DNA from: an uncultured Candidatus Saccharibacteria bacterium
Lineage (GTDB): Bacteria; Patescibacteriota; Minisyncoccia; Phycocordibacterales; UBA9973
Assembly: GCA_964563715.1 (NCBI GenBank)
Contig: CAZLXA010000003.1
Coordinates: 1 to 59,150 of the forward strand
Length of the DNA stretch: 59,150 nt
Reading direction: 5' to 3'
In this document: positions 5,444 to 49,942 of the stretch, piece after piece
How the letters are laid out: each line of letters starts with the position of its first letter
Numbering within the stretch: position 1 is the first letter of the stretch
Position numbers and translations under genes: made by a program
The notes under the pieces: model-generated
What the model saw: only the letters and a program-made list of their open reading frames with translations
What the model was told of the DNA's origin: nothing
The model's database searches: none

Positions 5444-6910
5444 ATGATTCCAACAGCAGAAGAAATCATATCTTTAACTTACGGCCTTAAAGAAAGAGAT
5501 AAAGCTTTAATAGAAAAAGCTTATAATTTTGCTAAACAGGCTCATGAGGGACAACTACGAAAAAGTGGTGAACCATATTTTTTACATGTGGCAACTACAG
5601 CCAAAAATCTAGCCGACCTTGATATGAGTTCTGTTGTTATTGCCGCTGGTTTACTTCACGATGTTTTAGAAGATGCAGGCGTGACAGAAGAGGAATTAAA
5701 AAAAGAATTCGGAGACGAAATAGTTGGATTAGTCGAAGGAGTAACAAAACTTGGTAAGGTTAAATATAAAGGTGTAGAAAGGAATGTTGAGAATTTAAGA
5801 AAATTTTTCATTTCAGTTGCAAAAGATTTGCGGGTTTTGGTCATCAAATTAGCCGATCGCTTACACAATATTGAAACCTTAGAGCATGTTCGGCCAGATA
5901 AACAAAAACGAATCGCCCTTGAAACTCTTGAAATTTATGCCCCCCTGGCTAATCGTTTATCGATGGGTCGATTAAAAGGTAAACTCGAGGACGCTGCATT
6001 CCGATTTGCTTTTCCGAAAGAATACGCTCAAGTTAAAGAATTACTTTTATCTAAAAAAGATGCTGAAGAAAAATATTTAATTGAAGTTAAAGATAAAATT
6101 GATCAAAAAATAAAAGAATCAAGAATTAAAGACACTAAAATAGACTACCGACAAAAACATTTATATTCTTTGTGGCGGAAACTTCAAAAATATAATATGG
6201 ATATCGGTAAAATCTATGATATTATTGCTCTCCGTATCATGGTTGATAGTGTGGCTGATTGTTATCATATCTTAGGTTTAATTCACGGTGAATGGACTCC
6301 GGTTCCTAATCGAATTAAAGATTATATTGCTTCGCCAAAAACAAACGGTTATCAAAGTTTACATACCACTATCTTTACTGGTACTGGTGGAATTGTCGAG
6401 ATTCAAATCAGGACTCATGAAATGCATGAAAAAGCCGAAAATGGTATTGCTGCTCATTTTTTCTATAAAGAGGAACATCATACCGATAAAACCATTCCAA
6501 AAGAATTCGAATGGGTTCATCAACTTCATGATTTAAACCAAAATAATGAAAACCCGGAAAAATTTTTAAAATCAATTAAAATGGATTTTTTTAGCGACCG
6601 ACTTTTCGTCTTCACTCCCAAGGGCGACATCATAGATTTACCAGAAGAATCGAGTGTTATTGACTTTGCTTATGCTATTCACACTGATGTTGGTGACCAC
6701 GCTCAAGGGGCCAAGGTTAATGGTAAAAATTCTTCACTCGGCACAAAATTAAAATCAAACGATATCGTTGAAATCCAAATAAATAAAAATGCTAAACCAT
6801 CATCAAAGTGGTTAGATTATGCGAAAACATCCTTGGCTAGAAAAAGAATTAACCTGCACTTAAAATCAAACAGTCTTTTATCAAAATTCTTATCTTTCGG
6901 TAAAAACTAA
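5444..6910 (+). CDS. rel: RelA/SpoT-homolog (p)ppGpp synthetase/hydrolase, truncated after the TGS domain
   Basis: 488 aa. HD hydrolase motif LLHDVLED. Synthetase motifs GYQSLHTTI and VEIQIRTHEMH. TGS domain FVFTPKGDIIDLPEESSVIDFAYAIHTDVG. There is no ACT/RRM tail. Confidence 0.9.
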   Translation: MIPTAEEIISLTYGLKERDKALIEKAYNFAKQAHEGQLRKSGEPYFLHVATTAKNLADLDMSSVVIAAGLLHDVLEDAGVTEEELKKEFGDEIVGLVEGVTKLGKVKYKGVERNVENLRKFFISVAKDLRVLVIKLADRLHNIETLEHVRPDKQKRIALETLEIYAPLANRLSMGRLKGKLEDAAFRFAFPKEYAQVKELLLSKKDAEEKYLIEVKDKIDQKIKESRIKDTKIDYRQKHLYSLWRKLQKYNMDIGKIYDIIALRIMVDSVADCYHILGLIHGEWTPVPNRIKDYIASPKTNGYQSLHTTIFTGTGGIVEIQIRTHEMHEKAENGIAAHFFYKEEHHTDKTIPKEFEWVHQLHDLNQNNENPEKFLKSIKMDFFSDRLFVFTPKGDIIDLPEESSVIDFAYAIHTDVGDHAQGAKVNGKNSSLGTKLKSNDIVEIQINKNAKPSSKWLDYAKTSLARKRINLHLKSNSLLSKFLSFGKN

Positions 6911-23533: not shown

Positions 23534-24838
23534 TTATTGTACTAATCCGGCTTTTACGCGACTTGCTGGACCGAATACTCCATCTGGGTTTAACCCATTT
23601 ATTGCTTGCCATTCTCTTACCTTCGCAGCAGTTAATCTTCCATAAAATCCATCTGTCTTAATACCAAAGAAAGACTGAAGAATTCTAACATCTTCTCCTT
23701 TTACTCCGATTCTAAGAGTTCTTTCAAATGCCCTTGGTGTGAAATATGTATTCCCGACGTTAACACTTAAACTTGTTTCTGCACTTAATCCACTTTCATT
23801 TGTGACCCTAAAAACAGGACTATAAACTCCAGCTCTCGAGTAAGTGTGTGTAAATGTTGCTTGCTGGTCTATTTTTTCAAATGGAGGTAAGGAAGCAGTT
23901 GCTGAATTACGAAAATATTCATCTCCCCAATTAACAGAGTAAGAAAGATTTTCTTCTTTTGAGCCAGAGACTAATACTTTCCATGTCCCCATTTGGTTGA
24001 CACTTAAGTTTTGTGGCCCACTAATTCCACTGATAACTGGTGTATTTGTTGTATTTTTAATTAACTTAAAATGATCATCGCTTTCATCGCATATGTTTGA
24101 CCTTGCTGAACAAACTTTTATTCTATAGTTTGCGCCCGCAATGACAGTGTAACTATTTGGCCCCCCAGGACCAAACAAATTTTTATTTGTATCCCATAAA
24201 TAACTTCCATCATTATTGGTAGGTCCAGTAATAGCAACAGCGTTCCAACAACCAGTTATACCAGGTCGACAATAAACACTATCATTTTTCAAATAAATGT
24301 TTACATTCTGATCATTTAAGTTATTCGATTTCCATTTGATGTTATACTTTTGTCCAATTATTATTTTCTCACCTCCATTTGGAGAAATAACTTTTATCAT
24401 TTGATTATTTGTCTCAAGTGGAATTACCTCTGTGGCAACGATTCCCCAAAAACCAGCCCCAAGTGGAATCCACTCCAATGTCCCAATAATTTTAACTCTA
24501 CTATTTTCATATTTAATTAAATCCGCTAAAACTGAATCCGAACCACCTGGGTTTACTAAATATGAAAGATTAGCCGACGGGCAAGGAGCCATAATGCAAA
24601 CAGCATAACCATCATTGGTAATTACGTGAGTTCCCCACATAGTATTTGAAGGGCCACTCTCTGTTAGAAAACCGGTAAATTGTTGTTCTCTTTGGCACAA
24701 AGCTCCTGTTGTAGAACTGTAGTTTTGATTATTAGAACATCCATCTTCGTAGGTCGATGCAAAAACAGAACTTTTTAATAACAAAAATCCTCCAATAATA
24801 AAAACAAACGCAAAAATACTACCTAATATTTTTTTCAT
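23534..24838 (-). CDS. secreted protein with a PKD-like domain and a C-terminal peptidoglycan-binding domain
   Basis: 434 aa. Signal/anchor MKKILGSIFAFVFIIGGFLLL. PKD-like YSVNWGDE...FTHTYSRAGVYSPVFRVTNESG. PG_binding_1-like GEDVRILQSFFGIKTDGFYGRLTAAKVREWQAINGLNPDGVFG. Confidence 0.75.
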   Translation of the reverse strand: MKKILGSIFAFVFIIGGFLLLKSSVFASTYEDGCSNNQNYSSTTGALCQREQQFTGFLTESGPSNTMWGTHVITNDGYAVCIMAPCPSANLSYLVNPGGSDSVLADLIKYENSRVKIIGTLEWIPLGAGFWGIVATEVIPLETNNQMIKVISPNGGEKIIIGQKYNIKWKSNNLNDQNVNIYLKNDSVYCRPGITGCWNAVAITGPTNNDGSYLWDTNKNLFGPGGPNSYTVIAGANYRIKVCSARSNICDESDDHFKLIKNTTNTPVISGISGPQNLSVNQMGTWKVLVSGSKEENLSYSVNWGDEYFRNSATASLPPFEKIDQQATFTHTYSRAGVYSPVFRVTNESGLSAETSLSVNVGNTYFTPRAFERTLRIGVKGEDVRILQSFFGIKTDGFYGRLTAAKVREWQAINGLNPDGVFGPASRVKAGLVQ

Positions 24839-26377: not shown

Positions 26378-26418
26378 TAAATAGTGCGTAAAATACGCGT
26401 TAATTGTTATTTTTAATA

Positions 26419-26471
26419 TATCTCGCTATGGACCAGTGTGTACCGACTTCAGGGTCGGGACAAACGAGATA
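26419..26471 (-). promoter_or_regulatory. candidate rpsF leader hairpin (possible S6:S18 autoregulatory site)
   Basis: The minus strand reads UAUCUCG ... CCGAC-CCUGAA-GUCGG ... CGAGAUA. It is a GC-rich island about 40 nt upstream of the rpsF ATG. Confidence 0.4.
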
Positions 26472-26520
26472 GGACATATATTAACAAATATAAGTCATTT
26501 TGTCTACTTTCCTTATTTTA

Positions 26521-29500
26521 CTAATTCTCTGACGGTATTGTGTTTGAGTCATCTGAAACAGGGCTTTCAGGAAGAGATACTACCACTGTTGTGTCATTAA
26601 TAGGTTCCGTTACTGTTTCAATAGATGGAGTAATAACCGGCTCTGTATCGATAAGAGGAAGTGGATTTGTAACGATTTCATTTTCAACTACTGGGGGATT
26701 TTCTGTTTCAATAGGAGGAGTAGCGACAGGTGGAGGCACCACAGTCGGTGTAACTTCAATTTCAGGGGTAGTGACATCTGTATTTGCTGTTCCCTTTGCA
26801 TTTATCAACATTTGTTTAAATTCTTCTTTTGTAATGCAGACATCATCAACACAAACATCACCGTTGACATGAAAAATATTGGCGGTAAATTCTTTGGCGA
26901 AAGTAGCTTGCTCTGCTAAAAATCGAGTAATAAGAGAACCGAGAGAATTATCCTTACTTGTATCTAAAGATGAAAGTTCTTTCACTATAAGGTCCATCTC
27001 TTGTATGGCCTTCACAGTGTAAGGTATTAAATTTGTATAAGAAATAGATTTCAAATTTGTATTCGGATCTGTAAAAACAATATCAGGGAATATTTGTTCT
27101 ACCTCTTGAGCAATAAATCCGACATGCTTATTTGTATTATCATTTTCATTATTCCAGTTATACATTACAGGTGTCAAAGCAAGTATTTTTTCTAGAGATT
27201 TCGAAGATGTATCAATATTTTCTTTTAAAATAAATTCAGAATTTTCGAGTGTTGTTATATTTTTCTTTAAATTTATATCTGAAGAACAAGCAAGTGATGC
27301 GGTTGTCGGATTTATATCGCAAGTCCCAGTACTGTTTTCAAATCTTACAACGATTCCAGAAACTGTATTATTACCAACTTGGAGTTGATATGAAGGACTG
27401 GTATTTCCAATTCCGACATTGCCTAAATTATCAACAGACATCAAATCAATTAAAGAATTTTTAAACCTAATACCACCAATTGATTGATTTAAAATCTCGA
27501 CATAACTAGTTATCCCTGAACCTGCATGATTGAGTCTACCATTTCCTCCAAACGCGATTGTTGATGATGATTTAATGTTACCCAATACATCTAAATTTGC
27601 AGCCGGAGTAGCTGTCCCAATTCCGACATTGCCGCCAAAATAACTTATAGCAGTACCTGCACCATAATATCCATACCTTCCTGTACCACTTGCAACATTA
27701 GTTTCTATCGCTCTAAAATCTGGAGCCGAGGTGAGAGTTGGATTAACATAAATCCCTCTTGTAATTCCATTTGCTGTTCCAGTTTGATTTACCGTAGGTG
27801 CGATATTTAATACATTAAATGTTGTACTATTTGACGCTGTAGCAATAGTTGGAGTTGAAGTAATTATATTTTGAGTTATACCATTAGTAGCCCCAGTTGC
27901 CATCGTACCATTCCCTAATCTTATAAAATTGGTAATTGTAGCACTTGCGTTTATGTCATAATCAATTATTGGACCAATGGAATTCGAGGTAACATTATTT
28001 ACAAAAAATGTTCCTGATCCTGCTGACAATTTTATAATATCTGTAGCAACAGTTGAAGTACCAACTACATGTAATTTACCCGTTGGTGTCGTCGTACCAA
28101 TACCTACATTACCGGATCCTGTTATCCTCATATTCTCCCTGAGAGTAGCTCCTCCTGTATCATAATTTTTAAATGCAAGGTCATAAGTTGCATTTGTTAT
28201 GGCAGCATTACCAGACCAGTTTAAAGTAAGCCCACCTCCAGAGAAAGCTATATCTCCAACTACTGTTAATTTACTACTCGGACTCGTCGTCCCAATTCCG
28301 ACATTACCAGAACTATTAATTCTCATCATTGTTGAACCAATTGTATTATTATTATTCCAAGAACCAACCTTAAAATCTAAATAATTTGTAGTTCCAATAT
28401 CAGTATGACCAGCAACAATTTGAGCCATCGATGTATTGGTATTACCCCCACCTGCTGTATTGCCATTAAATTTTATTATCCCTCTATCTCCATATGCCGT
28501 AGTATTATTATATAAACGTAACGAGGTACCAGCGGTAGATATTCCTGTTATATCAAGTAATTCACTTGGACTCGTCGTCCCGATGCCGACATTGCCGTTA
28601 GTATTATCTATCGCCATCCTTGTAGTAGCACCAGTTGAAACAGTACCTCCTGCTCCAAAGAAAAACTTTCCATTGAAAGTACCTATGTTAACGTCACCAT
28701 TGTTCCAACCAAAATAAGCTAAACCAGGAACTGTGGTACTTTTTGTATCATTAAAAAATCCAGCCATATAAGGTGATTCACTTGGGGCATGAACGGCTAA
28801 AGCAAAAGGGGTAACATTATATAAATCTACACTCTTAACTTCCAATTTTCCTAAAGTCGGTGTCGTCGTCCCAATCCCGACATTGCCGCTTGCCAAAACA
28901 TTAAGTAGATTATCATTATTGTACATTCCGATTGAAAAACGATTACTTGTTGAACCATCAGAAACATGCACATAATCAAAATGAGCTGAGTTATTTGTTG
29001 ACTTCGCTTTTCCAAGAAGGAACAATGATCCACTATTATTCACAATGTTTGGAGTCAATCCTTCGTATACCCATGAGAATACTCCACTTGAACCAGCAGA
29101 CGTATTTGATGTAATGAATGGAGCAACTTGAGTCGAAGCTGATGTTGCTCTGACAACACCATTTACGTCAAGAGGGTACGCAGGAGTTGTCGTCCCAATG
29201 CCGACATTGCCATTACCCATTACAGCAAATCTATTACCACCTATTAAAGTATAAGATAATCCTGAAGCTGTATTTGAGAAAGCAACTGAAACAGTAAGAA
29301 CTGTATCACTTGCAATTGTTGAAATTATTCTAGCTGTTTCTCCTGATACTGTAACTGTATCTCCGACCTTAAAAGTGCTCAAGAATGATGTGTTGGTTCC
29401 AGTCAGTGTCGTTGTTCCTGTAGTTGCGACTGTTCCGTTACCTGTTGTACTTTGTATAACATTATATAGGCCACTTAATCCAGTGCTTGATCCCGTCGCA

Positions 29501-32500
29501 AATCTACCTGCGGTATCAGAATAAAACATATAATTACCACCAGCGGTACGAAAACCACCACTAAGATTAGATAAATAATATTCATTACCTTTAATAGGCC
29601 CACTCGTTCTAACTCCATAACTACCATTAGTTGTTGTATTAAATTCTGTCAAGAAAGTACTATTTACTTCAAGTTTTGCAGCTGGATTAGTAATTCCAAT
29701 ACCTACGTTGCCTGCACTTGTAATTCTCATTTTTTCTGAGGTCACAGAATCTAAAGCAGAGCCGAAAGAAATAAAACTATCGTTAGTTGTATTTGTAGTA
29801 GTCCACTCCTGTTCTTTACCGAACCTCAAATACCCAGCAGAAATAGGAGCTGAAGAAGTTGTTCTAGCAAAATATGCATCTTGAGTAATAGAATGCGATA
29901 TGCCCGACGATTGGTCCATATTTCGTAGGGTAATAGGGATAGCATCTCCGTTATTATTATAATTCACGAGCAACTGACCATTTGAATTTATTTGAGTATA
30001 TCTTATTGTAGAATTCGTACTTCCTACATGCAAAAGGGCTCCCGGTGCCGTCGTCCCGATGCCAACATTACCAGAAGGATTTATAACAAATTCACTTGTT
30101 CCTCTAACATTTTCACCAGAAAAAATTTTAAAATTATTATCTGAATTATCAAGACCAATACTGTATTCAACTGCAGCATTAGTATTTGCAGAAAATTGCA
30201 CTTGAGAATCATAAGCAGAGCTACTAAAAGCATATAATTTCAAATTAGCATTTTCTCCCGCTTTGTATATTTCCAAATTTGCCCCTGGCGTTGTTGTTCC
30301 AATACCGACGTTGCCTGTACTTCTATTTATTGTCAATCTATCAACAAAGCCAGCACCTTCCATACTTTGTACATTAAAAGTATTTGCAGAAGCCCCATTA
30401 TAAAATAATTTGAAACCATAACTTGTTCCAGTTATTAAAGAACCAGCACCTTCTGCCATTACAAAACCGCTATCCTGATTTGCCCCAGACACTAACCCAA
30501 CTAAGGCATTATTAGCAAAAGCACTATCTCCAATTTGCAACGGAACTGTTGGCGTTGTCGTTCCAATACCAATATTACTAACCCCAATCGACATAATAGT
30601 CGTCGCTGCTCGAGAAATTTCTAAATTTCCAGTTAATGCGCTTAACGCAATTGTCGCTCTACTAGCACCGACTCTTTCTATTCTTATACCATCATTCGCT
30701 GTATCCCCTGACTGTAATATACTTAGTAACCCTGTAGGAGTATTTGTCCCAATCCCGACATTACCACCATCAATAACAGATAAAGCCGAGTTTGCTCCAT
30801 CTAAAAATTCTACAATCTTTCCTGTTCCATTTTGATTCACAGTCAAACCAGTAAGAGTAGAATTTCTTGTTATATCAATACCACCAGAACTTACCGTCAT
30901 ATTGCCGTTCGGTAGAAAAATGCTACCATTTTCAATTCTAAAATTACCCGTTCCAAGATTTAATAATGTTGTTGGACTCGTCGTCCCAATGCCGACGTTA
31001 TTTCCAGATGGATTTAAAGCAAGATTACTATTATACGATTGTATTGAAGAATATGTATTAGTTGCACCGAGATTAAAAGAAAGAGTCGTATCACTTCCTC
31101 CTGGTCCTATTTGCAATTTTGCAATCGGACTCGTCGTCCCAATCCCAACGTTACCATTCAATAACGTCTTTGTGATATTTGTATTTCCAAGAGTCACAGT
31201 ATTACTCCCTTGCCCTATTGCATTATATCCAATAACAATTTCATTATCAGTTCCATTGTCACTAGCCTTAGAATTACCACCTAAATATAATCCATTATTA
31301 CCAGTTGTTCTTTCTGTTATCCCATCTGAAATATACCTGGCTGACTGATAGCCATAAGCTGTATTTAAAGAACCGGTTGTATTTGAAACCATAGAGGCGT
31401 AACCACTCGCAGTATTGTTTCCAGCAGTAGTTGAAGAGAGTGCGTAAGCGCCATTTGCCGTATTATTACTACTAGTAACATTAGCAAACAAAGACTCTCT
31501 ACCTATTGCAGTATTGTTTGTTCCTGTTGTATTAGAATATAATGCAAGTATTCCAATAGCCATATTATTATTACCTGTCGTGTTTGAAGTTAATGTTCTA
31601 TAACCTAAAGAAGTATTATTAAATCCGGTAGTATTTGAGGTAAATGACTCACTACCAATAACTGTATTCAGTGAAGATTGTGAAGCCATAGTAGCAGTTG
31701 AACCAGTTGTAAGATTGCCAGCCCCGATTCCAATAAAAATATTATTACCAGTTGGAGTTATTGAATTACTATTTAATCCATAACTAAAATCAGAAATAAA
31801 AGGCGATGATCCTTTATAAATTATTCCATACGGAGTACTCCCTGTTGTTGTTGGTAGTCTAAAGTTTTTTGTAATTTCTAATTGCTGATTTGGTGTTGTT
31901 GTTCCAATGCCGACGTTACCATCTTTATCAATCCTCATTTTTTCTGAATTAACAGAACCATTGTTTGTTTGGAAAATCAAATACCCTTCAAGATTTGTAG
32001 TATAGTTTGCATATATACCTGCAATATTACCCCAAGATGGTCGTCGAAAATTTATCGATTGACCATTTTCTATTATTAGATTACCTGCTGAAATATGTAA
32101 TTTTTCTAATGGATTTGTCGTTCCAATGCCGACGTTTCCATTATTTAAAATAGTAACTTTATCAGAACCGCCAATCATAAAATGAAGTGGGTAAAGTCCA
32201 ATATTATTTATATATCCATCTCCTGTATTGGTATTAGAATATAACTCCATATAATTTCCACCACCACTTCCATCATATCCAAAAATAAGTTTTGGTGTGT
32301 TCCCAATCGTTGTTGCTCCTATTCTTATTCCTTTATCGGTAAGATGTAATCCTGCGGTCGGTGCCGTCGTTCCGATACCCACATTACCTGTGTTGTCAAT
32401 CAACATCCTAGTAAGAGAATCAGAACCGAAACCACCTGTTCTGAATGCTAATGTTCTTCCAGATGCGCTACCTAGAATCATTCTAGAAGACCCATCAAAA

Positions 32501-34215
32501 AACAAAGCTCCTTGTGAATTTGAAAATAAAAATTGATGACTATCTGTGGAATCATTTCCAATTAAAACATTTCCCTCAACTTCTAATTTTTGAGTTGGGT
32601 TTGTTGTTCCGATTCCAATATTTCCATTACCATTCATTCTCATATATTCTGTACTTCCAACCATAAATTTAACTGCGTAAGAAGAAGAATATGGTTTTAT
32701 AAAAAAATCTGTAGAACCAATAACCCCTGCAATACTACTAATTTGCCCCGATCCCATATTTAAACCAGCGATATAACTTGTAGTCCAATATTTACTAGGA
32801 ATTCCGAGTGAACCACCAGATGATACTGTTGGAACAATATTCCCAGTCACAGTTAATGCATCAGTTGGTGATGTCGTTCCCATTCCAACTCGGTGATTCA
32901 CACTATCAACAAATAAAGTATTCGTATCAACAGTTAAATTATGTAGACCCAAATCAACATTGGTATTTCCACCTGTATAAGGAATTAATCCTGACAAATT
33001 AGAAGGGGTTAAATAATTTCCCGCTGGTTGTTTATTATTAAAAGTTAACCAATCTGTTGATGCTAGATATCCATCAACCAAATTTGTGGCCACTCCTAAT
33101 TTTGTTTTTATAGAAGAATTTGTTTCATCTCCTGTATTTGTCCCAGAAAGATTTGAGCCAATAATATTTCCTGTGGCTAAAATATTCCCGTCTACACTTA
33201 TTTTCTCTGAAGGAGTACTTGTCCCTATTCCCAACCTAGAATTCGTACTATCCCAAAATAAATTTGTATTATCCTCTGTAAGTCCAGATGCTCCCTGGAA
33301 TGGAATTGAACCGAAAGTAAATGCGGGGTTAATAGTCCCAACTACATTTCCCGTGAGGTTACCGGTGATAGTTAGATCTCCGTTGATATTTGCATCACCT
33401 GAAACAATAAGAGATTTTGTCTCTACTTCATCTGCTAGTGAATTAGATAACCCTTTGATGCTGTCTGATATAGAATCAAATATTTTACTGACTTGTCGAG
33501 AAAAAAATACTTCTGAGACAAAATTAGAAACATCGATACTGTTTCCGTTTTCACCTTTCGGTCCTTGAGGGCCAACTGGCCCAATCAAACCTTGTGAACC
33601 TTGAATTATTTTTGTATCTGTTTTAGTTATTTGGATTGCTGGTGGAATAATTTCGTTTTTTGTTGTTTTTGGATTTTCTTTATTTGATGAGGGAATACTA
33701 GGAACAGTTTTCTTTGAAGTATTATTATCAGAAATAATTGTATCAGTATTTTTATTGTCGATTCCTATAACTGCTTGATTAAGAGCAATTCTTGTTTCAA
33801 CAAAATTGTTTATTAGTCCTTTTATAAAATAGTTCCAACCATAAGCTAGGTCGCCAGCGACTGAGACTAGAGACGATCCGAGTGAGGTATTATTTGTATA
33901 TTCTTTATTAGAAAGTGGGATAGAAATATCGATAGCAGTTGCAGTAAGATTTGTTTTCTTATTTACAGAAAATTCTGTTGTTTTGATTTCAAATTGATTA
34001 TCTAAATTAGAAAAATCTGGAATATTTTTCTTAAACAATGAAAGTGAATCATTTATTAAACATGCAACATCTGTATCATTGCATACGATTCTTTCTGTTA
34101 TCTTTTCGTTATTATAAGCAAGTAATATTTTAATGGGAAAAGTCACAAAAATAACAAAAATCAGTATAATGAAAAATGTATACTTATAATTTTTTATTTT
34201 TTTATTTTTTTCCAT
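26521..34215 (-). CDS. giant membrane-anchored fibre protein: collagen-like stretch, ~20 GNVGIGTT repeats, C-terminal tail-fibre-type intramolecular chaperone (Peptidase S74-like) domain, Pro-rich tail
   Basis: 2564 aa. TM anchor FFIILIFVIFVTFPIKILLAY. Collagen-like run GSQGLIGPVGPQGPKGENG. The motif GNVGIGTTxPxxxLxV recurs about 18-20 times by my count. The C-terminal module reads CSSDINLKKNITTLEN...LTPVMYNWNN...HVGFIAQEVEQIFPDIV...YTNLIPYTVKAIQEM. Confidence 0.9.
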   Translation of the reverse strand: MEKNKKIKNYKYTFFIILIFVIFVTFPIKILLAYNNEKITERIVCNDTDVACLINDSLSLFKKNIPDFSNLDNQFEIKTTEFSVNKKTNLTATAIDISIPLSNKEYTNNTSLGSSLVSVAGDLAYGWNYFIKGLINNFVETRIALNQAVIGIDNKNTDTIISDNNTSKKTVPSIPSSNKENPKTTKNEIIPPAIQITKTDTKIIQGSQGLIGPVGPQGPKGENGNSIDVSNFVSEVFFSRQVSKIFDSISDSIKGLSNSLADEVETKSLIVSGDANINGDLTITGNLTGNVVGTINPAFTFGSIPFQGASGLTEDNTNLFWDSTNSRLGIGTSTPSEKISVDGNILATGNIIGSNLSGTNTGDETNSSIKTKLGVATNLVDGYLASTDWLTFNNKQPAGNYLTPSNLSGLIPYTGGNTNVDLGLHNLTVDTNTLFVDSVNHRVGMGTTSPTDALTVTGNIVPTVSSGGSLGIPSKYWTTSYIAGLNMGSGQISSIAGVIGSTDFFIKPYSSSYAVKFMVGSTEYMRMNGNGNIGIGTTNPTQKLEVEGNVLIGNDSTDSHQFLFSNSQGALFFDGSSRMILGSASGRTLAFRTGGFGSDSLTRMLIDNTGNVGIGTTAPTAGLHLTDKGIRIGATTIGNTPKLIFGYDGSGGGNYMELYSNTNTGDGYINNIGLYPLHFMIGGSDKVTILNNGNVGIGTTNPLEKLHISAGNLIIENGQSINFRRPSWGNIAGIYANYTTNLEGYLIFQTNNGSVNSEKMRIDKDGNVGIGTTTPNQQLEITKNFRLPTTTGSTPYGIIYKGSSPFISDFSYGLNSNSITPTGNNIFIGIGAGNLTTGSTATMASQSSLNTVIGSESFTSNTTGFNNTSLGYRTLTSNTTGNNNMAIGILALYSNTTGTNNTAIGRESLFANVTSSNNTANGAYALSSTTAGNNTASGYASMVSNTTGSLNTAYGYQSARYISDGITERTTGNNGLYLGGNSKASDNGTDNEIVIGYNAIGQGSNTVTLGNTNITKTLLNGNVGIGTTSPIAKLQIGPGGSDTTLSFNLGATNTYSSIQSYNSNLALNPSGNNVGIGTTSPTTLLNLGTGNFRIENGSIFLPNGNMTVSSGGIDITRNSTLTGLTVNQNGTGKIVEFLDGANSALSVIDGGNVGIGTNTPTGLLSILQSGDTANDGIRIERVGASRATIALSALTGNLEISRAATTIMSIGVSNIGIGTTTPTVPLQIGDSAFANNALVGLVSGANQDSGFVMAEGAGSLITGTSYGFKLFYNGASANTFNVQSMEGAGFVDRLTINRSTGNVGIGTTTPGANLEIYKAGENANLKLYAFSSSAYDSQVQFSANTNAAVEYSIGLDNSDNNFKIFSGENVRGTSEFVINPSGNVGIGTTAPGALLHVGSTNSTIRYTQINSNGQLLVNYNNNGDAIPITLRNMDQSSGISHSITQDAYFARTTSSAPISAGYLRFGKEQEWTTTNTTNDSFISFGSALDSVTSEKMRITSAGNVGIGITNPAAKLEVNSTFLTEFNTTTNGSYGVRTSGPIKGNEYYLSNLSGGFRTAGGNYMFYSDTAGRFATGSSTGLSGLYNVIQSTTGNGTVATTGTTTLTGTNTSFLSTFKVGDTVTVSGETARIISTIASDTVLTVSVAFSNTASGLSYTLIGGNRFAVMGNGNVGIGTTTPAYPLDVNGVVRATSASTQVAPFITSNTSAGSSGVFSWVYEGLTPNIVNNSGSLFLLGKAKSTNNSAHFDYVHVSDGSTSNRFSIGMYNNDNLLNVLASGNVGIGTTTPTLGKLEVKSVDLYNVTPFALAVHAPSESPYMAGFFNDTKSTTVPGLAYFGWNNGDVNIGTFNGKFFFGAGGTVSTGATTRMAIDNTNGNVGIGTTSPSELLDITGISTAGTSLRLYNNTTAYGDRGIIKFNGNTAGGGNTNTSMAQIVAGHTDIGTTNYLDFKVGSWNNNNTIGSTMMRINSSGNVGIGTTSPSSKLTVVGDIAFSGGGLTLNWSGNAAITNATYDLAFKNYDTGGATLRENMRITGSGNVGIGTTTPTGKLHVVGTSTVATDIIKLSAGSGTFFVNNVTSNSIGPIIDYDINASATITNFIRLGNGTMATGATNGITQNIITSTPTIATASNSTTFNVLNIAPTVNQTGTANGITRGIYVNPTLTSAPDFRAIETNVASGTGRYGYYGAGTAISYFGGNVGIGTATPAANLDVLGNIKSSSTIAFGGNGRLNHAGSGITSYVEILNQSIGGIRFKNSLIDLMSVDNLGNVGIGNTSPSYQLQVGNNTVSGIVVRFENSTGTCDINPTTASLACSSDINLKKNITTLENSEFILKENIDTSSKSLEKILALTPVMYNWNNENDNTNKHVGFIAQEVEQIFPDIVFTDPNTNLKSISYTNLIPYTVKAIQEMDLIVKELSSLDTSKDNSLGSLITRFLAEQATFAKEFTANIFHVNGDVCVDDVCITKEEFKQMLINAKGTANTDVTTPEIEVTPTVVPPPVATPPIETENPPVVENEIVTNPLPLIDTEPVITPSIETVTEPINDTTVVVSLPESPVSDDSNTIPSEN

Positions 34216-34340
34216 TTATATGTATAAAATACAAGTATATTATACAATATTTTGAGTAAAAAAGGATTAAATTTATGTGGATAAGTAAAAGAAAAAACCC
34301 ATATCTCGTGGTTTAATTTTAACTTCAAAAATTTGTAATA

Positions 34341-35326: not shown

Positions 35327-36172
35327 TTATCCAAAAATGAAATAAAATGGAGTAATTATTAATCCAACTAAAAAGGAAAGAGCAAATATAGATAATATAG
35401 TTCGTGCATCTTCATATTCAGCTGGCATCAGATATTTATTCAACCATGTCCAATCATTATAATAAATGAAATTATTTTTCATGAATAATATGATTAATCT
35501 ATAAAATCTTTGGGTTATTAAGAATAATCCAATTGCAATTAGCCCCAAAATAATGACGATCAACTTTTCTGTGAAGTTATATTGTGTCAACCCTAAAGTT
35601 AGTCCAACTAAGGTTAATACAATAACTCTTATTTTAAGAAGATAAGCAATGGACCTAGATACTCTGAATTTTAAAGGATAACAATGATCCTCCCATGTCT
35701 CTTTTTCCGACATCTCCCAAAAAAATTTTATTGACCCAAAAATATAGGCAATAATTGGAATAAATATTATTGGTAATTCTTTAAACACGATAACCATAAT
35801 AAAAAATCCCAACATGAACCATAAAATAGAGTCTAAAATTGATCCCATCAATAATCTTATATTTGAAACTCGTGGATAGTAGTACCAGTGATTTTCATAA
35901 CTTATCCGAATTAGTTTTTTTTCATTTATCTTAATGATAAAAAAATTTGTGAAAAAAAATAAGATAGCAGTTCCAAAAATCAGAGTAAAAATTACGGACC
36001 ATAAAATATTATTTCCGATGGGGATATTTACAACAATTGGTGAATTTCCAATTAATTCTGTTTCTTCCAACAGAACTAGGAAAATCAAACTTTTTGCTTG
36101 AGTTATTAAATAAATAACTCCGATAGCAACCACTAAAAATAGTGTCCCGTACCAAATTTTTATGTTTTTCAT
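35327..36172 (-). CDS. polytopic membrane protein, function unknown
   Basis: 281 aa, with multiple hydrophobic helices throughout. Confidence 0.6.
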   Translation of the reverse strand: MKNIKIWYGTLFLVVAIGVIYLITQAKSLIFLVLLEETELIGNSPIVVNIPIGNNILWSVIFTLIFGTAILFFFTNFFIIKINEKKLIRISYENHWYYYPRVSNIRLLMGSILDSILWFMLGFFIMVIVFKELPIIFIPIIAYIFGSIKFFWEMSEKETWEDHCYPLKFRVSRSIAYLLKIRVIVLTLVGLTLGLTQYNFTEKLIVIILGLIAIGLFLITQRFYRLIILFMKNNFIYYNDWTWLNKYLMPAEYEDARTILSIFALSFLVGLIITPFYFIFG

Positions 36173-46447: not shown

Positions 46448-49400
46448 CTATTTCTCAATTAGTATCTTAAACACAAATTCATCGATTTTTATTTCTTGAC
46501 CATCGTTTTCTTTAATAAATATATCTTTTGCTCCGATAGATTTCATAAATTCTTTCTCATCGAAAGTATTTATTAATTCTTGGCCATCTACACCTGTCTC
46601 AATAAGTAAATTAATTATATCATTTGGATTCAACCCATTCTTTTTTCTCATATCCTGTATAGCTCGTAGAAGTTCTCGGTATTGACCCTCTTGTTTTAGC
46701 TCAGGTGTGATATCAGGATTCAACTCAATTTTTTCTGAAATAAAATTATCAGTGATGATCATTTTAATATTCAACTCGTCTTTTATAATTTTTGTATATT
46801 CTTTATCTAAATCATAATCTCTAACTTTTATACCAATAAGGGGCTGACGAACGGCAATACCAGCTTTTTGCCTTTCTTTTAATCCGAGTGATACAATCTC
46901 GCGGGCTTGTTTCATTTCATCAATAACTTTCACATCAATATTATCTATTTTGATATCTAAAAAGAAATCGGTCAGATGAACACTGATAGGGTCAGATGGA
47001 AATCTTATTTTATTCCAAATTTCTTCTGCCACAAATGGCATAAATGGGGCAAAAAGCTGAGCAGTTACTTTTATAACAAAATATAATGTATGTTTTGCTT
47101 CTTCATCCCCTTCTTTTAATCGATCACGAGAACGACGTAAATACCATGTGGAAAGATCTTCAATAAATAAATCAAAGGGCTTTGTTGCTTGAGCTAAATC
47201 ATAAGATTCCATTCCGTTTTTAACATCGAGCACAAATTGCGAGATCCGAGCAAGTATCCATCGGTCTAGAATATTTTTGCTTAATACTTGTTGCTCACTA
47301 CTTTCTACTTCCTTGTCTCTATATAATTCATAAAAAGAAACAACATTATCAAATCTATTAATTATTTTACTTGATACTTCTTGAACAAGTTTTTCTGAAA
47401 AATTTACATCTTCACCCTTCATCAAAGTACTTGAAATTAAATAAAAACGAAGAGCATCAACACCATATTTATCAAATAAAACCCATGGATCTGGATAATT
47501 ATTTTTAGATTTAGACATTTTACTTCCATCTTCAGCTAAAACTGTCCCTGTTGTAACTACGTTTTCAAAAGGGGCTTTACCAAAAAGAATTGTCGAAATA
47601 GCATGAGTATAGTAAAACCAAGTTCTGGTTTGAGCTATATATTCAGCAACAAAGCCAGCAGGAAAATTATTCTTTTGCCAATTCAAGTTTTCAAAAGGAA
47701 AATGATCTTGAGCAAAAGGCATCGAGCCTGATTCAAACCAACAGTCTATAACTTCTGGAATTCTCTTGTATTCTTCTTTATTTTCATCTAAAAGAATAAT
47801 TGAATCAATATAGGGCCGGTGCAAATCGAACTTATAATCTCCAGTATGTGGTAATGGGACGAAAGGTAATTCAATAAAATCCCCATTACTAACATAATTG
47901 AAATTTTTCTCGTTTTTTACTATTCCAAGAGATTCTTCTGTACTTAACATATTTACATCTGAAAACATTTGCCAAACAGGACTACCATGAGTAACCACAA
48001 GAATATTTTTATCTTCGTATTTTTTTTCTATATCATATAAAAAACTCATTGACCTGCGTCTAACATCTTCATAGGATTCATTCCCGTCTGGTGCGTAATA
48101 AAAATTCTCAACCGTCTTAGCGAATGCGTCATGATATTCTTTCCATTTTTTCCCTTCATACATTGGGACAGACATTTCATGAAGCCTATCATCAAAAACA
48201 ATTTTTTCTTTCTCATAACCTATTTTTTCAGCAATCAATTCTGCTGTTTCTCGTGTTCTTATAAAAGGAGAAGATATTATGTAATCAATTTTTTTATTTA
48301 TTAATTCTCGTGCAGATTTTTCAACTTGTTCTATCCCCTTCGCAGTTAGGTGATCATCATTGTTTACAGTCGAACTCACTTCACCACGCACATTACACTC
48401 TGTCTCGCCATGGCGCATGACAAAATATTTATTCCCAGATTTTTTAGTTTTTGATTTTAAATCTTCAACCGAATTTACCATCATTACCTTTCCATTTTTA
48501 TTCTTCCAAATTGGAAGAGGGCTGGCCCAATAGCGATTTCTAGAAATAGTCCAATCAGGAGCATTCTCCATTGTATGTTTAAACCGTCCTTCTTTTAAAT
48601 GGCTAGGAATCCAATTCATATCTTCACCTTTTGCAAGTAAATCATTTTTAACTTTCTGAATATTCACAAACCACGAAGGGAGAGCATAGTATAGAAGTGG
48701 TGTCTCACAACGGTAACAATGTGGGTAGGAGTGAATAATTTTTTCTTTAGCAAAAAGACTCCCAGCATGAGCAAGATACTTAATAATTAAAATATCGGTT
48801 GACTGATGATCTTCTTTTGATTTTGCTTTAACGTTTGGAAAATCTACTACCTCTTTAGAAAAATCACCATTAGGCTCCACGTGTCGAATAAAAGGGATAT
48901 TATGCTCTTTAGCTAAATTCATATCATCTTCTCCAAAAGCTGGAGCTTCATGAGCAATCCCTGTTCCTTTATCTAGAGTCACGAATGGAGCATGCCAAAC
49001 TTTCCAAATATTTTCTTTATTAGGCATGTCGATATTTTTATAATAATTAAATACTGGCTCATATGAAAGGCCCACAAGCTCATTTCCAGATACTTCTTTT
49101 AATATTTTTCCATCATTAAATTTATCTTTTAATGTTTCAAATAAATCATTTACAACAATAAGTATTTCTTTCCCGGCATCTGTTTTATTTTCAACAAAAA
49201 GATATTTTAATTCTTTATTAATTGCAATCGCTGTATTACCCGGGAGAGTCCATGGTGTTGTTGTCCACGCAAGCAAATAGGTATCTTTATATTGTTCATT
49301 TATAATTTTAAATTTTACATAAACAGAAATATCGGTAATATCCTTATAAGAATTATCCATGGCAATTTCAGAATTTGCTATTGGGGTTTCGCATCGAGGG

Positions 49401-49942
49401 CAATAAGCAAGAACTCTAACACCTTCATAAAGTAAACCTTTTTTATTCATCTCCCCGAGCGCCCACCAAACACTTTCAATAAAAGTGTTATCCATTGTCA
49501 TATAAGAATTATCAAAATCAACCCAACGTCCCATACGATCAATAGTTTTTTTCCACTCTCCGACATATTTAAGAACCTTGCTTCGAGCATGTTCAGTAAA
49601 TTTATCAATTCCTAATTCTTCAATTGCTTTTTTTCCGGAAATACCCAATTCTTTCTCAACAATATTTTCAATCGGCAAACCATGGCAATCCCAACCCCAA
49701 CGTCGTGGGACATTATATCCACTCATAGTTTTATATCTACCAATTACATCCTTAACAGTACTTCCAAGAATATGCCCATAATGTGGTAATCCTGTCGCAA
49801 AAGGAGGACCATCATAAAAAACATACTCCCCTTTGGGTGAATCCTTTTCTAAACTCTTTTTGAAAATGTCGTTTTCTTTCCAAAATTTTAAAACCTCTTC
49901 TTCTCGAAGTGCACTATTTGTTTTTTGGGTTTTTTCTTCCAT
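46448..49942 (-). CDS. ileS: isoleucyl-tRNA synthetase carrying an inserted histidine-phosphatase (PGAM-like) domain
   Basis: 1164 aa. HIGH-type PHYGHILG. CP1 editing motif TTPWTLPGNTAIA. KMSKS is present. The insert at about aa 505-700 contains FVMRHGETECN, SSPFIRTRETAE and VVTHGSPV. Confidence 0.95.
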   Translation of the reverse strand: MEEKTQKTNSALREEEVLKFWKENDIFKKSLEKDSPKGEYVFYDGPPFATGLPHYGHILGSTVKDVIGRYKTMSGYNVPRRWGWDCHGLPIENIVEKELGISGKKAIEELGIDKFTEHARSKVLKYVGEWKKTIDRMGRWVDFDNSYMTMDNTFIESVWWALGEMNKKGLLYEGVRVLAYCPRCETPIANSEIAMDNSYKDITDISVYVKFKIINEQYKDTYLLAWTTTPWTLPGNTAIAINKELKYLFVENKTDAGKEILIVVNDLFETLKDKFNDGKILKEVSGNELVGLSYEPVFNYYKNIDMPNKENIWKVWHAPFVTLDKGTGIAHEAPAFGEDDMNLAKEHNIPFIRHVEPNGDFSKEVVDFPNVKAKSKEDHQSTDILIIKYLAHAGSLFAKEKIIHSYPHCYRCETPLLYYALPSWFVNIQKVKNDLLAKGEDMNWIPSHLKEGRFKHTMENAPDWTISRNRYWASPLPIWKNKNGKVMMVNSVEDLKSKTKKSGNKYFVMRHGETECNVRGEVSSTVNNDDHLTAKGIEQVEKSARELINKKIDYIISSPFIRTRETAELIAEKIGYEKEKIVFDDRLHEMSVPMYEGKKWKEYHDAFAKTVENFYYAPDGNESYEDVRRRSMSFLYDIEKKYEDKNILVVTHGSPVWQMFSDVNMLSTEESLGIVKNEKNFNYVSNGDFIELPFVPLPHTGDYKFDLHRPYIDSIILLDENKEEYKRIPEVIDCWFESGSMPFAQDHFPFENLNWQKNNFPAGFVAEYIAQTRTWFYYTHAISTILFGKAPFENVVTTGTVLAEDGSKMSKSKNNYPDPWVLFDKYGVDALRFYLISSTLMKGEDVNFSEKLVQEVSSKIINRFDNVVSFYELYRDKEVESSEQQVLSKNILDRWILARISQFVLDVKNGMESYDLAQATKPFDLFIEDLSTWYLRRSRDRLKEGDEEAKHTLYFVIKVTAQLFAPFMPFVAEEIWNKIRFPSDPISVHLTDFFLDIKIDNIDVKVIDEMKQAREIVSLGLKERQKAGIAVRQPLIGIKVRDYDLDKEYTKIIKDELNIKMIITDNFISEKIELNPDITPELKQEGQYRELLRAIQDMRKKNGLNPNDIINLLIETGVDGQELINTFDEKEFMKSIGAKDIFIKENDGQEIKIDEFVFKILIEK

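Follow-up and report, generated by a model that had tools for sequence, protein, structure and literature searches.

A long S74-terminated fibre protein, probably a secreted trimeric adhesin, encoded at a variable chromosomal site of a Candidatus Nomurabacteria-type bacterium

We analysed a 59,150-nucleotide stretch of DNA (hereafter, the window) from a candidate phyla radiation (CPR) bacterium and focused on a single 7.7-kb gene on its minus strand, referred to here as the fibre gene. In our judgement the product of this gene is probably the precursor (pro-form) of a long homotrimeric adhesive fibre that is secreted by a Candidatus Nomurabacteria cell and would bind another cell. The sequence is best read as that of a trimeric fibre on the cell surface, because the shaft of the protein aligns to the crystal structures of the trimeric MAT fibres of Bdellovibrio bacteriovorus and because S74 domains, one of which lies at its C-terminal end, act on trimers (PMC10769870). 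A first-pass annotation of the same DNA had already proposed such a fibre, encoded by an open reading frame (ORF) of 2564 aa at 26521–34215. The ORF exists, starts with ATG, and is single and uninterrupted over 7.7 kb in DNA of 33–36 % GC. The whole gene and the parts of its product are as follows.

26521..34215, minus strand: whole fibre gene, ATG start, encoding a predicted 2564-aa secreted fibre pro-protein; the coordinates include the stop codon.
34111..34215, minus strand: aa 1–35, a Lys-rich n-region and a 21-residue hydrophobic stretch with the end ILLA/YN (read directly; the slash marks the putative cleavage position).
33601..34110, minus strand: aa 36–205, a lineage-specific N-terminal domain with the Cys45/Cys52 pair and the motif LGSSLVSVAGDLAYGWNYFIKG, and then a linker rich in Ser, Thr, Lys, and Pro.
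33544–33600, minus strand: aa 206–224, the collagen-like run GSQGLIGPVGPQGPKGENG, six Gly-X-Y triplets (read directly).
33235..33543, minus strand: aa 225–327, a conserved neck, comprising a heptad-like helical stretch and then the first beta strands.
27283..33234, minus strand: aa 328–2311, the shaft, about 20 predicted beta-helix modules, with a GNVGIGTTxPxxxL capping loop closing each.
31156..31815, minus strand: aa 801–1020, the 17-residue-repeat module, about six repeats SNTTGxxNTAxGxxALx and then the end NEIVIGYNAIGxGSNTVTLGN.
29212..29652, minus strand: aa 1522–1668, a conserved shaft island, including a ~70-aa unit TGTNTSFLSTFKVGDTVTVSGETARIISTIASDTVLTV...YTLIGG.
26779..27282, minus strand: aa 2312–2479, the Peptidase_S74/ICA domain, with SDINLK, long helices, and a Cys2455/Cys2460 hairpin with ITKEEFKQML.
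26521..26778, minus strand: aa 2480–2564 and the stop codon, a C-terminal tail of Pro/Thr/Glu-rich low complexity (20 % P, 16 % T, and 13 % E).

The shaft is built around one recurring motif. A regular-expression scan found 20 copies of GNVGIGTTxPxxxL (18 strict and two looser) from aa 328 to 2267, in which G, G, and P are present in all 20 copies and L in 18. The count agrees with the 18–20 copies of GNVGIGTTxPxxxLxV noticed in the first-pass annotation, but the spacing is 51–255 aa and not the 60–150 aa given there. A search of the PDB with the whole fibre matched three solved structures, 8OND (bd2133, E = 5.5e-10), 8OL4, and 8OJN, all of them Bdellovibrio proteins named "cell wall surface anchor family". 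Residues 595–793 were aligned to Bd2133 (8OND) with the motifs in register, GNVGIGTT...L lying over GNLGLGTAAPTSALHV, GLVGINTAAPLQKLHV, and GNVGIGATAPTAKLEV. According to Caulton et al. 2024 (PMC10769870), the MAT fibres are trimers of intertwined beta-helices with "capping loops" that close the edges, and Supplementary Fig. 18 of that paper gives the MAT capping loops NVGIGTTTTTEKLN, NVGIGATSPSAKLQ, and similar ones, plus one from MyRF. Because the motif matches both the capping-loop alignment and the structures, we take the fibre repeat to be a capping loop and the shaft to be a chain of about 20 beta-helix modules.

The same shaft is related to phage proteins. It matched the PHROG tail-fibre families phrog_9942 (1.4e-55), phrog_18345 (3.7e-39), phrog_1980, and phrog_5481, and tblastn matched the fibre modules in cultured cyano-, pelagi-, roseo-, and Flavobacterium phages at 25–47 % identity. 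Phage tail-fibre homology was found for all three repeat types of the fibre. These matches, together with the viral structure models described below, bear out the earlier description of the protein as built from phage-tail-fibre parts; sequence comparison supports that wording where homology is meant, regardless of whether the modules passed from phages to cells or the other way round.

The C-terminus carries the auto-processing module that had been proposed, with an HHpred or hmmscan search for Peptidase_S74 as the suggested check, in the first-pass annotation. PF13884 (Peptidase_S74) matched aa 2312–2380 with E = 1.5e-15; the score was 57.7 bits with the whole protein and 64.8 bits with the C-terminal fragment alone, the cut-off being 22 bits. 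The catalytic motif S2312-D-I-N-L-K2317 is intact (Ser2312, codon 27280–27282; Lys2317, codon 27265–27267). In an alignment of 20 sequences, the fibre and 19 homologues, the S and K of SDxxxK are invariant and the D is found in at least 90 %. Profile matches of the C-terminus included 8JOV (tail fibre, 7e-17), 6F45 (S16 gp37), 8OJN (Bd3182), 7DC3, 8HQZ (T5 L-shaped fibre), and 3GUD (phi29 gp12). A monomer model predicted with AlphaFold from the homologue alignment had a predicted local distance difference test score (pLDDT) of 82–93 over approximately aa 2310–2400, the ICA core. Its top fold match in the PDB was the ICA domain of MyRF, 7DC3 (probability 1.0, but E = 0.03 and TM-score = 0.5), and 103 viral ICA/tail-fibre models were matched at E <= 1e-3. 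Judging from the model, the C-terminus shares the fold of the solved ICA domains. After the catalytic Ser come 252 residues, namely the helices, the Cys hairpin with ITKEEF, and the Pro/Thr/Glu-rich tail; the C-terminal peptide NGDVCVDDVCITKEEFKQMLINAKG is unchanged in homologue P0004, which is elsewhere 28 % identical to the fibre.

At the opposite end, the protein starts with the Lys-rich MEKNKKIKNYKY, and the 21-residue hydrophobic stretch that follows closes with ...FPIKILLA/YNN. A Kyte–Doolittle scan showed this to be the sole hydrophobic segment of the fibre. A Pro stands at −7 relative to the L-L-A/Y end. By eye, small-x-Ala also ends the hydrophobic segment in homologues P0002–P0004, P0011, P0012, P0020, P0021, P0031, P0032, and P0036, and it does so likewise in four syntenic fibres (on loci L007, L021, L037, and L038); the segment ends of homologues, before a polar stretch, read, among others, LIA/Y, ASA/F, TFA/A, VLA/T, VFA/V, and AFA/S. 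Such a small-x-Ala ending is the pattern of signal peptidase I. Because the N-terminal segments of the fibre and its homologues end in this pattern, a cleavable Sec signal peptide is favoured over an uncleaved signal anchor. Of the membrane-anchored protein with one N-terminal transmembrane helix described earlier, the hydrophobic segment stands, but its end looks more like that of a cleavable signal peptide. The uncleaved version, in which the helix is a type II signal anchor that holds the fibre in the cytoplasmic membrane, is in our view somewhat improbable. In its favour, 21 hydrophobic residues are long enough to span a membrane, a true internal transmembrane helix follows a cytoplasmic helix-turn-helix (HTH)-like segment in homologues P0019, P0037, P0044, and P0049, and no other anchoring device was found in the fibre. 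Against it stand the L-L-A/Y end with its Pro, the small-x-Ala ends of about 12 homologues and the four syntenic fibres, and the cleaved signal peptide and N-terminal binding domain of the Bdellovibrio MAT fibres (PMC10769870).

The region behind the hydrophobic segment is almost private to this lineage. An exhaustive HMMER search of 1.84 billion representative proteins with aa 36–225 (the N-terminal domain and the collagen-like run) found just two relatives, P0002 and P0003; the domain matched no Pfam family except a sub-threshold Collagen, no NCBIfam family (whole-protein search), and no PDB entry. The six Cys residues of the fibre form three tight pairs (45/52, 2299/2310, and 2455/2460), all kept in P0002 and P0003, and these conserved close pairs together with the N-terminal hydrophobic segment indicate an exported, extracytoplasmic protein. 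A short collagen-like run had been placed at about 33541–33605, and its six Gly-X-Y triplets were indeed found at 33544–33600, though with 12.3 and 15.0 bits they did not reach the gathering score of Pfam Collagen (PF01391), 27.2 bits. G-X-Y runs occupy the equivalent position in P0002, P0003, P0013, P0032, and P0034, and the run is likely a trimer nucleation element. The neck behind it is 52–70 % identical to those of P0002, P0013, and the syntenic fibres of L021 and L037, whose remaining shaft is not alignable.

Between the capping loops, the first-pass annotation saw polyasparagine/threonine filler, a description that we cannot uphold: the sequence is rich in N, T, G, and S, yet its longest run of N is four, and it holds the conserved 17-residue repeat and an island of about 150 aa. 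The six 17-residue repeats, whose register was seen directly, occupy aa ~860–960 inside the 220-aa module. The module is conserved in 14 homologues with a mean column identity of 47 %, and it is 37–47 % identical to tail-spike/tail-fibre proteins of Flavobacterium and Roseobacter phages. Single-sequence and profile searches of the PDB with the module were both empty; its AlphaFold model had a mean pLDDT of 54, with which Foldseek returned non-significant beta-solenoids only. The island (aa 1522–1668) is possibly a protruding side domain. Units resembling its ~70-aa unit are present in P0010, P0011, P0012, and P0021, and a PDB search with the island matched the flanking capping-loop motif alone (8OML, E = 0.09) and not the island. 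Domains other than S74 and the sub-threshold Collagen were found in the fibre neither by Pfam (E <= 1 to 10) nor by NCBIfam (whole protein).

These features can be combined into a model of how the fibre might be made and used. The Sec system would export the chain via the N-terminal signal sequence. Three chains would then come into register, probably assisted from the N-terminal side by the collagen-like run and the helical neck (aa 206–327), while the C-terminal S74/ICA domain, a known assembly chaperone of such fibres, would guide the trimer. About 2000 residues are predicted to fold into an intertwined triple beta-helix of about 20 modules, each with its capping loop, with the 17-residue-repeat module and the conserved, putative side domain set among them. 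In a correctly formed trimer, Ser2312 and Lys2317 would then cut the chain, which would release a 253-residue chaperone with the Pro/Thr-rich tail and expose the distal end. Scaling 0.4–0.7 Å per residue from Bd3182 and Bd2133 over about 2100 residues gives an estimated length of roughly 80–150 nm for the mature fibre. The fibre may stay on the cell via its lineage-specific N-terminal domain or an uncleaved anchor, and by analogy with MAT fibres and Bdellovibrio prey, its target would be surface structures on a second cell, which is most likely the host of the presumed episymbiont. All cultivated Patescibacteria are described as episymbionts (PMC12206443). From this lifestyle and the analogous MAT fibres, attachment of the fibre to a host cell is plausible.

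The lineage was assigned from the methionyl-tRNA synthetase (MetRS) encoded in the window, which is 90 % identical to that of contig L001, a metagenome-assembled genome (MAG), and 60–76 % identical to those of dozens of MAGs of Candidatus Nomurabacteria, Paceibacteria, and Paceibacterota. Because of these identities, we identify the window organism, on the basis of this one protein, as a CPR bacterium of the Candidatus Nomurabacteria/Paceibacteria group; the CPR-type cell supposed in the first-pass annotation is consistent with this placement. Many MAG records titled 'uncultured Candidatus Saccharibacteria bacterium' (TPA assemblies; L001, L005, L010–L013, and others) show 60–90 % MetRS identity and full local synteny with Nomurabacteria/Paceibacteria, and the Saccharibacteria label on those records looks generic or wrong.

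The chromosomal setting of the fibre gene is that of a housekeeping region. Downstream lie rpsF and ssb, and upstream tatD, a 281-aa membrane ORF, metG, and the genes of an AI-2E transporter and an M16 peptidase; farther out are topA, a relA/spoT-family gene (with HD, RelA_SpoT, and TGS domains), clpB, infB, the gene of RNase J, and those of several tRNA synthetases. The window has three tRNA genes, the nearest about 10 kb from the fibre gene. No other phage gene was found within >20 kb on either side, and no integrase or phage family was found among the annotated neighbours. The GC content at third codon positions (GC3) of the fibre gene is 0.20 compared with 0.233 ± 0.023 in housekeeping genes, and the synonymous codon choice matches too. 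Because its codon usage is native and its neighbours are housekeeping genes, the fibre gene is a resident chromosomal gene and neither part of a prophage nor a recent foreign arrival. On the evidence of its codon usage we also reject a recent horizontal acquisition from a compositionally foreign source.

We compared 62 species-representative genomes with tatD and rpsF both on the retrieved locus. The gene order M16–AI2E–metG–tatD–rpsF–ssb is conserved, and tatD and rpsF are adjacent in about 50 of the 62 genomes, with gaps of 43–770 bp. In four genomes (L007, L021, L037, and L038), a single S74-terminated fibre gene encoding 1304–1797 aa sits exactly between tatD and rpsF. The gene of P0002 (2126 aa), the best database relative of the fibre, likewise lies between tatD and rpsF, on L081, and P0002 is thus a syntenic orthologue. 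With the window and L081 included, fibre length at this site ranges from 1304 to 2564 aa across species. The tatD–rpsF junction is a general insertion site. In the window it consists of the following stretches, the second of which is also the upstream intergenic region.

26378–26520: junction stretch flanking the fibre gene on the rpsF side.
34216–34340, minus strand: junction stretch flanking the fibre gene on the tatD side; the sequence TGTATAAT at 34246–34239 (minus strand) resembles an extended −10 element, for which it is weak evidence.

In a consensus scan of the upstream region, promoter-like sites were no more numerous than in shuffled sequence, a terminator scan was likewise not above chance, and no Shine–Dalgarno sequence was visible upstream of the gene on direct reading. 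The first codons of the gene (34185–34215, minus strand), ATGGAAAAAAATAAAAAAATAAAAAAT, contain A7, A7, and A6 tracts, and such short homopolymer tracts opening a surface-protein gene could permit on/off switching based on slippage. Two other genomes carry unrelated cargo of 4–7 kb between tatD and rpsF (L010, 10154–14096; L059, 12235–19098), in which the C-termini of some ORFs read by eye like histidine-kinase ATPases.

A comparison of the fibre with its syntenic orthologue suggested how the gene evolves. The flanking proteins of the window and L081 are 78–88 % identical, whereas the identity of the fibre to P0002 varies strongly along the chain.

aa 1–200: ~40 % identity.
aa 200–300: 77 % identity.
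Most of the shaft: 15–30 % identity, with many gaps.
aa 1522–1720: 81 % and then 54 % identity (consecutive 100-column windows).
aa 2285–2484: 75–78 % identity.
C-terminal tail: 27 % identity (27 of 100 alignment columns).

DNA matches between the two genes are non-colinear: nt 5619–5899 of the window gene correspond to nt 3381–3661 of the orthologue, and nt 4567–5033 to nt 3736–4202. The kept ends and the low-identity, non-colinear middle indicate that shaft modules were gained, lost, and shuffled. Judged by these alignments, the gene evolves across species like that of a phage receptor-binding protein, with conserved ends, a shuffled middle, and a variable site.

Repeat recombination, suggested earlier as the driver of length variation, is not supported as such a mechanism. 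The recurring DNA string of about 27 nt on which the suggestion rested is real: the 23-mer cited for it, GTCGTCCCAATGCCGACATTGCC, gave seven matches with <=3 mismatches against 0 expected, all within the fibre gene, and looser copies number 12–15. However, the repeats are not near-identical as claimed. Their cores of 21–27 nt vary at synonymous sites, their flanks are 60–75 % identical, the longest exact internal repeat of the gene is 19 nt, and tandem arrays are absent from the gene apart from an A/T-rich tract at its 5' end. Length changes between species would instead result from the gain, loss, and shuffling of modules.

The fibre belongs to a large family. We found 319 homologues at E <= 1e-10, most of them 1400–4400 aa long and with PF13884. 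They are annotated as hypothetical or "tail fiber domain-containing protein" in Nomurabacteria, Paceibacterota, Minisyncoccia, Wolfebacteria, and Doudnabacteria, and further ones come from Verrucomicrobia, Omnitrophota, Dehalococcoidia, and a Woesearchaeote. Two classes can be distinguished: a phage-like class without an N-terminal hydrophobic segment and with 90–120 residues after the catalytic Ser, and a cellular class with such a segment and 210–330 residues after the Ser. By both features, the window fibre is assigned to the cellular class. At the 90 % level it is the sole member of its cluster, on a single contig. A metagenome scan for strain variants with the N-terminal 330 aa gave generic motif matches only, and even the window's own contig was not returned. 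The giant homologues P0019, P0037, P0044, and P0049 have no signal peptide but a cytoplasmic HTH-like start and then a transmembrane helix at about aa 115–215; P0019 also closes with a C-terminal transmembrane helix and KRKVK after its Pro/Thr-rich tail, and P0095 and P0100 carry PF12728. The HTH-bearing homologues would be fibres wired to a possible DNA-binding domain.

Explanations other than a cellular adhesin were weighed against these data. If the gene belonged to a prophage or its remnant and encoded a virion tail fibre, the strong PHROG matches and the insertion of the gene relative to the closest genome would be accounted for, and a phage-like homologue subclass without signal peptides does exist. 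However, the neighbours are housekeeping genes with no further phage gene, integrase, or adjoining tRNA gene among them, the predicted N-terminal export signal and the long tail after S74 are typical of the cellular class, the codon usage is native, and synteny is kept in L081, L007, L021, L037, and L038 with the fibre gene as the sole insertion. The housekeeping context, native codons, and single-gene insertion largely refute a prophage tail fibre, which we regard as highly improbable. An assembly artefact, in which a collapsed or chimeric repeat region produced a false giant ORF, might be suspected in a metagenome-type contig with a motif recurring 20 times. Its chance is nearly nil: at 19 nt the longest exact repeat is shorter than the k-mers that assemblers usually work with, tandem arrays are absent, the reading frame remains open over 7.7 kb of AT-rich DNA, and the same architecture is found in the independent syntenic orthologue and in hundreds of homologues of 1400–4400 aa. 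On the exact-repeat length, the open frame, and the independent orthologue, we reject assembly collapse.

A different kind of alternative accepts the trimeric, S74-processed fibre but gives it another role, such as adhesion to particles or biofilm matrix, an envelope spacer or protective coat, or a tailspike-like polysaccharide-degrading enzyme. S74 domains often occur on depolymerases such as K1F endosialidase (PMC10769870), the distal segment that precedes the predicted cleavage site is conserved and not variable, most related species, including the closest, have no such gene at this site, and the low-confidence model of the 17-residue repeats resembles, without significance, beta-solenoids that include pectate lyases and tailspikes. 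We nevertheless consider such a role unlikely, since searches of Pfam, NCBIfam, and the PDB revealed no catalytic domain, the characterised proteins closest to the fibre are adhesins, and the mosaic evolution of the shaft is as expected under diversifying, partner-driven selection.

Several observations weigh against an adhesive fibre directed at a host cell. The closest sequenced relative, L001 (90 % MetRS identity), has no fibre gene at the junction, where its tatD–rpsF gap is 122 bp, and most related species also have none there; the gene is therefore dispensable at this locus. The roughly 45 residues before the cleavage site (aa 2268–2311, 27283–27414; consensus ...VGxxxxxGxVARFxNxxGTCDINPTTxxLxCxSD, including a Cys pair) are conserved over many CPR homologues of different lineages, whereas the tips of phage receptor-binding proteins are hypervariable; specificity, if there is any, must therefore reside in another part of the fibre. 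Neither a C-terminal anchor motif in the fibre nor relatives of its N-terminal domain beyond P0002 and P0003 were found, and the monomer predictions are confident only at the ICA core, with pLDDT <60 in the shaft regions. To our knowledge, no Nomurabacteria have been cultured, and the episymbiotic lifestyle of the window organism is thus itself presumed.

The kind of protein proposed here is already known: it is a bacterial chromosomal, S74-terminated, tail-fibre-like trimeric adhesin, as described for the MATs in 2024. MAT fibres are displayed on the surface of the predator B. bacteriovorus, and some deletions slow prey entry (PMC10769870). Like the fibre, the MATs of the S74 subgroup (Bd3182, 8OJN; Bd2133, 8OND; PMC10769870) have a chromosomal gene, an N-terminal export signal (predicted in the fibre), mosaic evolution, a long beta-helical shaft with the capping loop NVGIGTTxPxxKL, and a C-terminal S74 domain with SDxxxK; the 20 capping-loop copies and the alignments to 8OND, 8OL4, 8OJN, and 8OML put the fibre's shaft with theirs. 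We also count as shared that the bearer lives on other bacteria, the window organism being a presumed episymbiont. In contrast, the fibre is about 2.5 times longer (2564 aa and 20 capping loops versus about 1000 aa), it is the only one in the 59-kb window whereas the MAT family has 21 members per genome, and its cell is a CPR bacterium and not a Gram-negative predator. CPR bacteria are generally held to be single-membraned. All 21 MATs share one beta-rich N-terminal domain of about 130 aa after the signal peptide, to which the nearly orphan domain of the fibre is unrelated by sequence, in that the search with aa 36–225 returned P0002 and P0003 alone, the MAT domain itself not being compared directly or by fold. 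The fibre also differs in its collagen-like run, helical neck, and 17-residue-repeat module, and in the part of about 250 aa with a Cys hairpin and Pro/Thr-rich tail that is predicted to be released after S74 cleavage. As far as these comparisons go, what sets the window protein apart from the MATs is its size, N-terminal module, collagen-like run and neck, 17-residue-repeat module, and long, putatively shed pro-domain.

With the phage ICA fibres and tailspikes (K1F endosialidase, 3GW6; T5 pb1, 4UW8/8HQZ; S16 gp37, 6F45; phi29 gp12, 3GUD; 8JOV), the fibre has in common the S74/ICA domain with its catalytic motif, a triple beta-helix (predicted in the fibre) directly before the cleavage site, and shaft modules and the 17-residue repeat at 25–47 % identity. 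Unlike them, it is not encoded in a phage genome, has a predicted secretion signal and no virion-attachment N-terminus, and has a predicted post-cleavage fragment about twice as long and a conserved, not variable, tip before the cleavage site. The giant 'tail fiber domain-containing' proteins of CPR MAGs are the fibre's own family, with an N-terminal hydrophobic segment, capping-loop repeats, and S74 with a long tail; within it the fibre forms its own 90 % cluster and shares its N-terminal domain with two proteins only. MyRF (7DC3) has the ICA module and one capping-loop motif in common but is otherwise a eukaryotic membrane-bound transcription factor. A YadA-like trimeric autotransporter adhesin (TAA), the name that one source gives to P0013, was rejected for the fibre: no YadA barrel or Hep_Hag family was found by Pfam at E <= 1 to 10, the C-terminus is S74, and the 17-residue-repeat profile matches no solved TAA.

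Full-text literature searches turned up no description of S74/tail-fibre-type fibres in CPR bacteria, whose homologues were found as database annotations; a giant-gene preprint and a Southlakia transposon-sequencing (Tn-seq) paper make no mention of such fibres, and publications on large surface proteins of the CPR name other adhesion domains. As far as we know, the ways in which ultrasmall CPR bacteria locate and grip their hosts are largely unexplained, and nothing has been learned of it for uncultured Paceibacteria. Type IV pili and a few adhesins are implicated in cultured Saccharibacteria. The fibre gene is a concrete candidate for host attachment in the CPR. A broader and rather doubtful proposal is that Nomurabacteria/Paceibacteria deploy trimeric fibres of about 100 nm, derived from phage tail fibres, as a host-recognition organelle with a shed, cell-specific pro-domain (ICA, Cys hairpin, and Pro/Thr-rich tail), the modules being swapped at a tatD–rpsF hot spot as in phage receptor-binding proteins. 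If this is true, it would be the fibre repertoire, and not just type IV pili, that determines which hosts these episymbionts can use. The gene is present in some species and absent from others at a fixed chromosomal site, and its modules are shuffled there, which suggests that such genes could mark host specificity in metagenomes. Whichever the direction of transfer, these genes would show tail-fibre-type building blocks in use at the cell surface.

Three other genes of the window drew our attention. The 281-aa polytopic membrane protein between metG and tatD (35327–36172, minus strand) matches no Pfam or NCBIfam family, and the closest genome, L001, has no matching sequence, its metG–tatD distance being about 270 bp. 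About 1.7 kb downstream of the fibre gene, a 434-aa protein (23534–24838, minus strand) has PKD and Ig-like domains and a C-terminal PG_binding_1; its relatives recur downstream of ssb in several related genomes, and it may be a wall-associated surface protein. The isoleucyl-tRNA synthetase (IleRS; 1164 aa, 46448–49942, minus strand) contains an insertion of about 210 aa. The NCBIfam ileS match runs to aa 507, and models of the ValRS/MetRS type and the Pfam class I tRNA-synthetase domains resume at about aa 720. The NCBIfam exception families for IleRS include one with a GNAT domain and none with a phosphatase; the insertion in the window protein is a His_Phos_1 domain (histidine phosphatase/phosphoglycerate-mutase-like) at aa 507–664, with the catalytic RHG motif at 510–512.

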